Below are positions 61,234 through 64,000 of a stretch of 64,000 nt of DNA, in pieces. Below the pieces are notes generated by a model. The model did not search any database. It saw only the letters and a program-made list of their open reading frames with translations, and was not told the origin of the DNA. Within the stretch, counting starts at the first letter, position 1. Every line of letters starts with the position of its first letter. This DNA is from Escherichia coli (GTDB taxonomy: Bacteria > Pseudomonadota > Gammaproteobacteria > Enterobacterales > Enterobacteriaceae), in assembly GCF_024223415.1 (NCBI RefSeq), contig NZ_CP100500.1. One strand, given 5' to 3'. Position numbers and translations under genes: made by a program.

Positions 61234-61550
61234 AAATTCTCCTGTAAAACGCGGAATATACCGTACCTCTTAGCGGGGAAAAACAGGGTTATGCGGCAAC
61301 GTCGAAATTAAATGTGATCTGCCACGCCTTTTATCACAAAAGTGTCTCCGGAAGTACAATGCAAATTTGCCTGGCAAAATAAGGATAATCAACATATTAC
61401 GAATCGCTGCACACCTGTGCTGATGACTACTGCGCAGAGAAACAAATGTGCAAGAGAAAGCGCTATTTCTCCCCATGCAAAGAGTGAAAAATCGCTTTGA
61501 AAGGCCATCATGATGGGGTTATATCAGATCAAGCGGTGAGAAAGCGTATT

Positions 61551-61564
61551 TGCACAAATGTGCA
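61551..61564. promoter_or_regulatory. Inverted repeat TGCACA-AA-TGTGCA just upstream of the sorC-like RBS (candidate operator)
   Basis: 6-bp arms with a 2-bp spacer, about 17 bp before the ATG; a related AAATGTGCA motif recurs at 61444..61452. Confidence 0.35.
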
Positions 61565-61580
61565 GAACCAGGAGGCGGCA

Positions 61581-62528
61581 ATGGAAAACAGTGACGATAT
61601 CCGTTTGATTGTGAAGATTGCCCAACTCTATTACGAACAGGATATGACGCAGGCGCAAATCGCGCGCGAACTGGGTATTTACCGCACCACCATCAGCCGC
61701 TTGCTTAAACGAGGCCGCGATCAGGGAATTGTCACCATCGCCATCAACTATGACTACAACGAAAATCTCTGGCTGGAGCAGCAACTGAAGCAAAAGTTTG
61801 GCCTGAAAGACGTTGTGGTGGTGTCGGGAAATGATGAGGATGAAGAGACTCAACTGGCGATGATGGGGTTACACGGCGCGCAACTGCTGGATCGCTTGCT
61901 GGAGCCTGGCGATATTGTCGGTTTTTCCTGGGGTCGCGCGGTGAGCGCACTGGTTGAAAACTTGCCGCAGGCGGGGCAATCGCGGCAGTTAATCTGCGTA
62001 CCAATTATTGGCGGACCGTCCGGTAAACTCGAAAGCCGCTATCACGTAAACACATTAACCTACAGCGCGGCTGCGAAGCTGAAAGGGGAATCGCATCTCG
62101 CGGATTTTCCGGCTCTGCTGGATAACCCCTTAATTCGTAATGGGATCATGCAGTCTCAGCACTTTAAAACCATCTCTGCCTACTGGGATAATCTGGATGT
62201 CGCCCTGGTGGGAATTGGCTCACCGGCCATTCGCGACGGAGCTAACTAGCATGCGTTTTATGGTGGTGAAGAGAGTGACGACCTGAATGCCCGCCAGGTT
62301 GCTGGCGATATTTGCTCGCGCTTTTTTGATATTCACGGCGCAATGGTTGAAACGAATATGAGCGAAAAAACACTCTCTATCGAAATGAATAAATTAAAGC
62401 AGGCACGATATTCCATTGGCATTGCCATGAGTGAAGAAAAATACAGCGGAATTATTGGTGCACTGCGTGGAAAATATATTAATTGTCTGGTAACGAATAG
62501 CAGCACAGCTGAACTATTACTGAAATAA
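61581..62528 (+). pseudogene. sorC: SorC-family regulator (sorC-like) interrupted by an in-frame TAG at 62247..62249
   Basis: AGGAGG RBS then ATG 61581; N-terminal HTH (TQAQIARELGIYRTTISRLLKRGR) and sugar-binding domain; the frame stops at TAG after ...AIRDGAN and the same frame continues (HAFYGGEESDD...GALRGKYINCLVTNSSTAELLLK) to 62528, together giving about 315 codons. Confidence 0.75.
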
Positions 62529-62597
62529 AAATCTTCCCGATGATTATCGTAATAAAAATTACGGCGGGTCCCTATTATCTAAAATCAGGAGTCTGTT

Positions 62598-63404
62598 ATG
62601 CAAACGTGGTTAAATTTGCAGGATAAAATCATTATCGTCACCGGCGGCGCAACCGGTATTGGTCTGGCTATTGTAGAGGAATTATTAGCACAAGGCGCGA
62701 ATGTACAGATGGTCGATATTCACGGTGGCGATGGACAATATGAAGGTCATAAAGGCTATCAGTTTTGGCCGACCGATATTTCCAGCGCCAAAGAGGTAAA
62801 TCATACGGTAGCGGAAATTATCCAGCGTTTTGGTCGCATCGACGGTCTGGTCAATAACGCCGGGGTCAATTTCCCGCGTCTGCTGGTCGATGAGAAAGCG
62901 CCTGCCGGGAAGTATGAACTCAACGAAGCTGCATTCGAAAAAATGGTCAATATCAACCAGAAAGGCGTTTTTCTGATGTCGCAGGCGGTGGCGCGACAGA
63001 TGGTCAAACAACATGATGGCGTGATTGTGAATGTTTCCTCAGAAAGTGGACTGGAAGGCTCAGAAGGACAAAGCTGTTACGCCGCTACCAAAGCCGCGCT
63101 CAATAGCTTCACGCGCTCCTGGTCGAAAGAATTGGGTAAACACGGTATCCGTGTGGTCGGTATCGCGCCGGGGATTCTGGAAAAAACAGGACTGCGCACG
63201 CCGGAATATGAAGAAGCGCTGGCGTGGACGCGCAATATCACCGTCGAGCAGCTGCGTGAAGGCTATACCAAAAACGCCATTCCTATTGGGCGCGCCGGTA
63301 GATTAGCAGAAGTCGCTGATTTTGTTTGTTATCTGTTGTCTGAACGCGCCAGCTACATCACCGGAGTAACCACTAACATTGCGGGCGGCAAAACGCGCGG
63401 ATAA
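62598..63404 (+). CDS. SDR-family dehydrogenase, sorbitol-6-phosphate dehydrogenase-like (SorD-like)
   Basis: 268-aa ORF with Rossmann motif TGGATGIG and catalytic YxxxK (YAATK). Confidence 0.8.
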   Translation: MQTWLNLQDKIIIVTGGATGIGLAIVEELLAQGANVQMVDIHGGDGQYEGHKGYQFWPTDISSAKEVNHTVAEIIQRFGRIDGLVNNAGVNFPRLLVDEKAPAGKYELNEAAFEKMVNINQKGVFLMSQAVARQMVKQHDGVIVNVSSESGLEGSEGQSCYAATKAALNSFTRSWSKELGKHGIRVVGIAPGILEKTGLRTPEYEEALAWTRNITVEQLREGYTKNAIPIGRAGRLAEVADFVCYLLSERASYITGVTTNIAGGKTRG

Positions 63405-63413
63405 GGAGGCTTT

Positions 63414-63821
63414 ATGGTCAACGCCATTTTTTGTGCCCACGGCAAATTAGCTTGCGCCATGCTGGAATCGGTTCAGATGGTTTACGGCAACGCCAATGTT
63501 GAAGCCGTTGAATTTGTGCCCGGCGAGAACGCCGGAGACATCGTAGCAAAGCTGGAAAAGTTAGTAAGCATTCACAATCAAGATGAGTGGCTGATTGCCG
63601 TGGATTTACAGTGCGGCAGCCCGTGGAATGCGGCAGCGATGCTTGCGATGCGCAATCCTCGTCTGCGGGTAATCAGCGGCCTTTCTCTGCCGCTGGCCCT
63701 CGAACTGGTTGATAACCAGGACAGCATGAATGTTGATGAACTGTGTGAACACCTGACGCAAATCGCAAAGCAATCCTGCGTTGTCTGGAAACAACTGGCA
63801 ACGACAGAGGAGGATTTCTGA
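63414..63821 (+). CDS. PTS mannose/sorbose-family EIIA component (SorF-like)
   Basis: 135-aa ORF with N-terminal phosphorylatable His region (FCAHGKLA) typical of EIIA-Man. Confidence 0.8.
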   Translation: MVNAIFCAHGKLACAMLESVQMVYGNANVEAVEFVPGENAGDIVAKLEKLVSIHNQDEWLIAVDLQCGSPWNAAAMLAMRNPRLRVISGLSLPLALELVDNQDSMNVDELCEHLTQIAKQSCVVWKQLATTEEDF

Positions 63822-64000
63822 TGAACATTACGCTCGCCCGCATTGATGACCGCCTGATCCACGGTCAGGTCACTACCGTCTGGTCGAAAGTGGCTAACGC
63901 CCAGCGCATTATTATCTGCAATGACGAAGTTTATAACGATGAAGTTCGCCGGACATTATTGCGTCAGGCTGCGCCACCGGGAATGAAGGTTAACGTGGTC
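63821..64000 (+). CDS. PTS mannose/sorbose-family EIIB component (SorB-like), 5' part; continues past window end
   Basis: MNITLARIDDRLIHGQVTTVWSK is the EIIB-Man signature; start overlaps the EIIA stop (TGATG). Confidence 0.8.
   Translation, partial: MNITLARIDDRLIHGQVTTVWSKVANAQRIIICNDEVYNDEVRRTLLRQAAPPGMKVNVV

Follow-up and report, generated by a model that had tools for sequence, protein, structure and literature searches.

Sor operons of Klebsiella and Escherichia coli

The L-sorbose operon of Klebsiella pneumoniae, sorCDFBAME, was reportedly described by Sprenger, Wöhrl, Wehmeier and Lengeler between 1984 and 1994. In Escherichia coli, the sor operon is a textbook variable catabolic locus. 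According to the Klebsiella and E. coli literature (PMC12817954), SorF (IIA), SorB (IIB), SorA (IIC) and SorM (IID) constitute a mannose-family phosphotransferase system (PTS) that takes up L-sorbose as L-sorbose-1-phosphate, SorE reduces this product to D-glucitol-6-phosphate and SorD oxidizes the latter to fructose-6-phosphate. In the same scheme SorC has a dual role, serving as repressor without L-sorbose and as activator with it. According to the reference list of PMC9836092, the E. coli sor genes were mapped near metH and iclR by Wehmeier, Nobelmann and Lengeler (1992; J Bacteriol 174:7784). The sor operon of strain CFT073 (c4981–c4987) conferred growth on L-sorbose when cloned into DH5alpha (PMC2831201), and in ST131 and ST648 strains knock-out of sorE abolished L-sorbose utilization and knock-in conferred it (PMC12817954). 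Recently, the locus has been put forward as a marker that is enriched in high-risk lineages.

A more distant relative, manXYZ of E. coli K-12, encodes an enzyme II complex of the same mannose family in which the membrane subunits IIC and IID are separate too. The IIB domain of its ManX protein (PDB 1vsq) is matched by SorB (E = 1e-49). The sor system differs from manXYZ in that IIA and IIB are separate proteins, and in carrying its own regulator, SorC, together with two dehydrogenase/reductase genes for the conversion of L-sorbose-1-phosphate to fructose-6-phosphate.

The window ends in the 5′ half of a sor operon

We analysed a 64-kb stretch of E. coli DNA (64,000 nucleotides, hereafter the window), whose last genes comprise the start of a sor operon. 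An open reading frame listing and comparison with K-12 and with E. coli SCU-316 identify yjbD (DUF3811; 60088–60360, plus strand), the stop codon of which abuts that of rluF; relative to the window, K-12 carries a further 125-bp element at these two stop codons, as judged by blastn. The rluF gene (60361–61233, minus strand) encodes the 23S rRNA pseudouridine(2604) synthase and on this side is the outermost core gene that K-12 also has. Beyond it lie a divergent spacer of 347 bp that includes the sor regulatory region (61234–61580) and, all on the plus strand, sorC for a SorC-family regulator (61581–62528; 315 codons, a pseudogene here), sorD for an SDR-type D-glucitol (sorbitol)-6-phosphate dehydrogenase (62598–63404), sorF for EIIA of the mannose-family sorbose PTS (63414–63821) and the 5′ part of sorB for EIIB (63821–64000), the start of which overlaps the sorF stop by 1 nt. 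The window end cuts sorB after its first 60 codons, and the remainder of the operon is therefore described here from genomes that differ from the window by 1 base over 60300–64000. The closest complete genome, that of SCU-316, shows 1 mismatch across this interval and has the order rluF-sorCDFBAME-pepE-yjbB-metH-iclR, with REP-like repeats between sorE and pepE. Window and SCU-316 together thus present a regulator, an SDR dehydrogenase, IIA, IIB, IIC, IID and a Zn-dependent sorbose-1-phosphate reductase on one strand, in the sorCDFBAME order.

Family models agree with these assignments. SorD scores 499 bits against the NCBIfam sorbitol-6-phosphate dehydrogenase model (cut-off 304), and each of the four PTS components exceeds its curated family cut-off: IIA in the window (EIIA-man, TIGR00824; 148.1 against 98.35 bits) and, in proteins taken from the near-identical genome, IIB (TIGR00854; 223.5 against 163.6), IIC (TIGR00822; 424.2 against 339.85) and IID (TIGR00828; 472.3 against 292.75). 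The intact SorC of strain A30 matches structures of SorC, DeoR, LsrR and CggR and has, over its full length, the two-domain organization of the family, with an N-terminal helix-turn-helix and a C-terminal sugar-phosphate-binding domain; the window allele stops within the latter, effector-binding domain. The open reading frames and the NCBIfam matches thus bear out the preliminary description of the window, made from the sequence alone, which had read a sor-type operon (regulator, SDR dehydrogenase, EIIA-Man, EIIB-Man) from 61234 onward.

The NCBIfam models for IIA to IID describe generic ‘mannose/fructose/sorbose’ subfamilies, which would also suit a mannose-family operon for some other sugar. 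We consider that reading practically negligible. Intact E. coli SorC aligns with K. pneumoniae SorC (PDB 2w48) over residues 1–315 (612 bits, E = 1e-183) and SorB with K. pneumoniae EIIB-Sor (PDB 1nrz; 305 bits, E = 8e-91), both from end to end; similarity to the K. pneumoniae sor proteins is 82–97% (PMC2831201, Table 3); the gene order is identical to that of the K. pneumoniae operon; and the orthologous E. coli operons have the cloning and sorE knock-out phenotypes on L-sorbose cited above (PMC2831201; PMC12817954). The DNA after rluF comprises the 5′ half of the chromosomal sorCDFBAME operon for L-sorbose, at its usual rluF–pepE site near metH and iclR. It is the same locus as that published for E. 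coli (Wehmeier et al. 1992; CFT073, PMC2831201; ST131 and ST648, PMC12817954); a primer used to clone the CFT073 operon (PMC2831201) differs by one base from window positions 61236–61263.

The junction with the K-12 allele

In K-12 MG1655 the same flanking genes occur in the same order, and pepE directly adjoins rluF across a 211-bp spacer, in line with the preliminary description, which had pepE and yjbB beyond rluF in K-12. The preliminary description had placed the start of the accessory locus at 61234. The locus does begin after rluF, yet 61234 is only the first intergenic base; in the blastn and K-12 flank comparison that had been proposed, similarity to K-12 ends 35 nt upstream of the rluF start codon, at 61268|61269. 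The other breakpoint, located by blastn between a sor-positive genome and K-12, lies 90 nt upstream of pepE. Between the two breakpoints there are 6,317 bp in the sor-positive genome and 86 bp in K-12.

The breakpoint is softer in a multi-genus alignment, in which weak residual homology to the K-12, Citrobacter and Klebsiella versions extends to about 61300. The first 25–30 nt of the 86 bp in K-12 are homologous to the rluF-proximal spacer and are closer to the Citrobacter and Klebsiella sequences than the E. coli sor-positive version is. Near pepE, the 11-mer CACTTTCCAGA is kept in K-12 and common to Klebsiella, and is absent from that place in the E. coli sor-positive loci checked. We also considered the K-12 86 bp as a remnant of sor DNA: short-word blastn gave chance 8–12-mers only, and with more sensitive settings the first ~30 nt proved homologous to the part of the spacer that adjoins rluF in other genera. 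Divergence between K-12 and the sor-positive genome is a mosaic of 0–8% per 400 bp, somewhat raised in rluF (2.4–4.8%), and this 400-bp profile has no clear peak at the junction.

The junction was also said to lack an obvious att site, tRNA or IS remnant, and our searches concur. No tRNA genes were found at the locus, an Rfam search of it gave chance-level matches only (E = 0.17 and 0.84), and a search of the two sor boundaries (positions 12970 and 19286 of the locus sequence L001) detected no terminal direct or inverted repeats. Integrase genes, IS or transposase genes and att-like repeats were likewise not found at the locus. The GC content of the sor segment, about 0.43–0.57, is like that of its flanks. 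In sum, the locus shows none of the features that define genomic islands (integrase or transposase, tRNA or att target, direct repeats, deviant composition, variable location) and occupies one fixed chromosomal site.

Two alleles divide the species

Among 5,426 complete E. coli genomes, 2,866 join rluF to sor as in the window and 2,557 (47%) carry the K-12-type empty junction, such that the site is essentially biallelic. The preliminary description had spoken of a variable sor locus near metH in some E. coli lineages; variability holds, with K-12 devoid of sor, but ‘some’ understates a slim majority. It had also named identical sequence at this position in K-12 or in most E. coli as the finding that would speak against an accessory locus; K-12 is without the sequence, and we judge the reading to stand. 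Sor-specific DNA occurs in 2,868 complete genomes, nearly always as a single copy and in no case on a plasmid. Its identity across lineages is 96.8–100%, a core-like divergence, and the copies of O157, ST131 and LF82 are 96.8–98.9% identical to the sor DNA of the window. In the published survey, only 9.6% of phylogroup A genomes and 12.1% of B1 genomes have the operon, against more than 86% in each of the other phylogroups (PMC12817954). The sor locus is a presence/absence polymorphism of E. coli and not a mobile island.

Cross-genus synteny points to loss in K-12-like lineages

We scanned one genome per species with a degenerate DNA pattern derived from a conserved SorC peptide and obtained 27 loci. 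The order yjbD-rluF-sorC recurs in about 20 species of Citrobacter, Klebsiella, Pseudocitrobacter, Enterobacter, Mangrovibacter and Escherichia, the Mangrovibacter rluF match being partial only and 70% identical, and wherever the locus sequence extends far enough the operon ends in the order sorE-(gene)-pepE-yjbB-metH. Syntenic sor genes are present in Klebsiella michiganensis, K. oxytoca, K. grimontii, K. spallanzanii and K. indica, in several Citrobacter species, and in Escherichia whittamii and another Escherichia species. In the Klebsiella species sampled, the sor proteins are about 76–96% identical to those of the E. coli locus; K. michiganensis, K. oxytoca and K. grimontii share its neighbours (rluF and pepE-yjbB-metH) and the motifs upstream of sorC. 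Klebsiella, Citrobacter and Enterobacter loci differ in having an extra shikimate-5-dehydrogenase-like gene after sorE, of which only a remnant is found in mainstream E. coli sor-positive strains. The Pseudocitrobacter sor locus is suspiciously E. coli-like. An exact-protein look-up of K. pneumoniae SorC (2w48) gave no match.

As judged from gene order, the rluF-sor-pepE arrangement would predate E. coli, or would at least have been exchanged only through its conserved flanks. Because several other genera share the same synteny, the event that separates the two alleles was most likely a loss in K-12-like lineages and not an insertion in the lineage of the window. The reading of the K-12 state as a loss allele fits the published phylogroup distribution, which is low in A and B1 and above 86% elsewhere (PMC12817954). 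Ancestral presence of sor is the parsimonious reading, short of proof, since homologous replacement, occurring repeatedly by way of the conserved flanks, would yield the same synteny.

The opposite polarity, in which a horizontally acquired genomic island inserted by rluF in the window lineage and K-12 preserves the ancestral empty site, would account for the absence of sor from K-12 and from 47% of complete genomes, and could draw on the K-12 spacer, whose 25–30 nt by rluF and 11-mer by pepE are closer to other genera than the E. coli sor-positive haplotype is. Nevertheless, we regard such an insertion as highly improbable. Against it stand the missing integrase, IS, tRNA and flanking repeats, a GC content like that of the flanks, a single constant site with core-like divergence and no plasmid copies, the identical rluF–pepE position in Citrobacter, Klebsiella, Enterobacter, Pseudocitrobacter and other Escherichia, and the REP-type chromosomal repeats that have accumulated downstream of sorE.

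The K-12 spacer flanks bear on the manner of the loss as well. Their resemblance to other genera argues that the empty allele is not simply a recent deletion of the modern sor-positive haplotype; a clean excision from the present-day E. coli sor-positive haplotype would not give the K-12 allele, whose short flanks are closer to Citrobacter and Klebsiella in the alignments. The same two stretches, the 25–30 nt by rluF and the 11-mer by pepE, are the basis for a more tentative proposal, that presence and absence of sor between rluF and pepE may form an old two-haplotype polymorphism with no simple recent deletion, which we hold to be possible though not the probable case. Were it true, E. coli would either have kept both alleles side by side over a long time or have imported the empty one from another species.

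Conserved motifs upstream of sorC

Several blocks of the rluF–sorC spacer are invariant in the multi-genus alignment. The spacer also holds two palindromes of the form GCACA-NN-TGTGC, which has exactly 2 matches in the window, both in this spacer, against 0.1 expected. The palindrome GCACAccTGTGC (61409–61420) is conserved across genera and is a candidate upstream SorC operator; the palindrome GCACAaaTGTGC (61552–61563), invariant across genera, lies just upstream of the sorC ribosome-binding site and is a second candidate SorC operator. Between them we recognize a candidate sor promoter on the plus strand, TTGAAA and TATATC separated by 17 nt (61497–61525), from our own reading and its cross-genus conservation; it was absent from the list returned by a consensus promoter scan. 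The promoter block gatggggttatatcagatc does not vary among 11 sequences from Escherichia, Pseudocitrobacter, Citrobacter, Klebsiella and Enterobacter. The two palindromes may be SorC operators, the first placed far upstream and the second lying between promoter and sorC start. We found no description of GCACA-NN-TGTGC palindromes as SorC operators in the papers on the locus consulted here.

An amber codon interrupts sorC

The window sorC departs from the Klebsiella gene in being broken by an in-frame amber codon (TAG, 62247–62249) at codon 223, a stop that the preliminary description overlooked. Residue 223 is tryptophan in 26 of 26 SorC orthologues examined, and PGAP annotates the sorC of a near-identical genome with ‘internal stop’. 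The truncated product is predicted to end after residue 222 of 315, keeping the DNA-binding domain and losing the last 93 residues, all of them in the effector-binding domain. The window sorC accordingly belongs to the family by descent and is a pseudogene, not an intact SorC regulator. With a 55-nt query centred on the mutated base, we found the amber allele in only 7 of the 5,426 complete genomes (SCU-316, O78 strain 3, NCTC10444, NCTC9112, KV7, S51 and GPEC1446), which sets the window apart from the published E. coli sor loci. The remaining visible sor genes are intact, suggesting that sorC was probably inactivated recently.

By stripping SorC of its effector-binding part, the amber stop would leave the operon no longer inducible by L-sorbose. 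Since SorC is needed for induction, we predict that L-sorbose induction is lost in the clade carrying the amber allele. In this strain, as far as can be told from the sequence, induction is probably lost, and the strain is probably Sor-negative or grows poorly on L-sorbose. Growth on and induction by L-sorbose are known for the orthologous CFT073 and ST131 operons; for this strain, the sorC stop makes them doubtful.

SorC is reported to act as a repressor as well when L-sorbose is absent (PMC12817954, citing Wöhrl et al. 1990), so a null allele could instead give low constitutive expression. The operon might then still be expressed despite the stop, with repression removed and L-sorbose used constitutively or at a basal level. 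In keeping with this, the genes downstream of sorC in the near-identical genome are all intact, and the promoter and both palindromes are unchanged. We nonetheless think continued expression rather unlikely: induction reportedly requires activation by SorC when L-sorbose is present (PMC12817954), which would apply to this operon too, and a stop about 350 nt before sorD could cause transcriptional polarity. Loss of induction enters the joint reading that very probably best explains the locus: a resident sor operon, subject to presence/absence polymorphism with the K-12 empty allele derived, in which a sorC nonsense mutation would here have removed induction.

The sor locus and its distribution are already published (Wehmeier et al. 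1992; PMC2831201; PMC12817954), with functional confirmation dating from 2010 and 2025, and nothing reported here is new in kind. The additions are small, namely the exact boundary with K-12, allele counts over 5,426 genomes, the rare sorC nonsense allele and the candidate operator and promoter motifs, to which the cross-genus synteny adds the view of the locus as an old syntenic resident of Enterobacteriaceae with K-12 in the loss state. Their importance beyond annotation is little. Because the regulator is a pseudogene, presence of the sor genes does not equal phenotype in this strain, which is relevant when sor presence serves as a marker.

The window also differs from the published loci within sorD. 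Base 62652 is A, which places Thr19 where the TGxxxGxG loop has an invariant Ser19. None of the complete E. coli genomes carries this base, and the Ser19Thr change reflects a mutation private to this strain or else an error in the sequence.

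An eighth gene downstream of sorE

Sequence beyond the end of the window reveals an eighth gene in the sor region. In Klebsiella, Citrobacter, Enterobacter and one divergent E. coli, this gene overlaps the stop codon of sorE and encodes a shikimate-5-dehydrogenase-like protein (NF009202, 455 bits). The gene or its remnant lies at 18988–19110 in L001, the sor+ E. coli locus that reaches past the window end, and at 828–1640 and 6557–7366 in two other fetched loci (L008 and L018, respectively). In mainstream E. coli sor+ strains, all that is left of the gene is the initial 21 codons and the 3′ end. 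Because only these two parts are kept, the sequence comparison indicates that the eighth gene underwent an internal deletion in these strains. E. coli sor+ genomes also carry REP/BIME-like palindromic repeats in the stretch that runs from the sorE remnant region to pepE (L001 19150–19265, likewise beyond the window end); the K-12 empty allele lacks these repeats.

Variation from rluF to sorC

The Pseudocitrobacter faecalis locus (L007 356–2518) encodes RluF and SorC proteins 97.2% and 94.9% identical to those of E. coli, compared with 90.2% for the adjacent LysC, and its rluF–sorC spacer is likewise far nearer E. coli than LysC is. That RluF, SorC and the spacer are all much nearer E. coli than the neighbouring LysC hints, at the sequence level, that the rluF–sorC segment may have been exchanged between genera. 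In other aligned rluF–sorC spacers, an ERIC-like insert of approximately 125 bp sits directly upstream of the rluF start codon, limited to Citrobacter youngae (L011), Klebsiella oxytoca (L029) and an Enterobacter sp. (L012), the last of which holds more additional sequence besides.

On the other side of rluF, the convergent yjbD and rluF genes of the window have abutting stop codons (60360/60361), whereas in K-12 (L002 9228–9359) they are separated by an additional element of approximately 125 bp. This element, which includes CCCCTCACCCTAACCC...GGGGCGAGGGGA and has AGGCGCT/AGGCGTT on its flanks, resembles a short insertion of repetitive or MITE-like type. In three genomes (H14–H16), the match to 60300–64000 includes 132 additional bases at some point along its length.

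A private sorD base and a possible decayed sor locus

In strain HS-01 (NZ_CP172817.1), the match to the sor query covers just 12% of it and is split into three fragments, with annotations of a sugar-binding-domain protein and a sorbose IIA; these may represent a decayed sor locus. Within the window, a private A at 62652 changes sorD codon 19 from Ser to Thr within the TGxxxGxG cofactor loop. This position is Ser in 24 of 24 orthologues, and the A occurs in none of the complete E. coli genomes; the change is either genuine and private to this sequence, or an artefact of sequencing. Just 5′ of the sorD ribosome-binding site, the sorC–sorD spacer (62529–62597) has a small, AT-rich hairpin with the sequence CGTAAT-AAAA-ATTACG.
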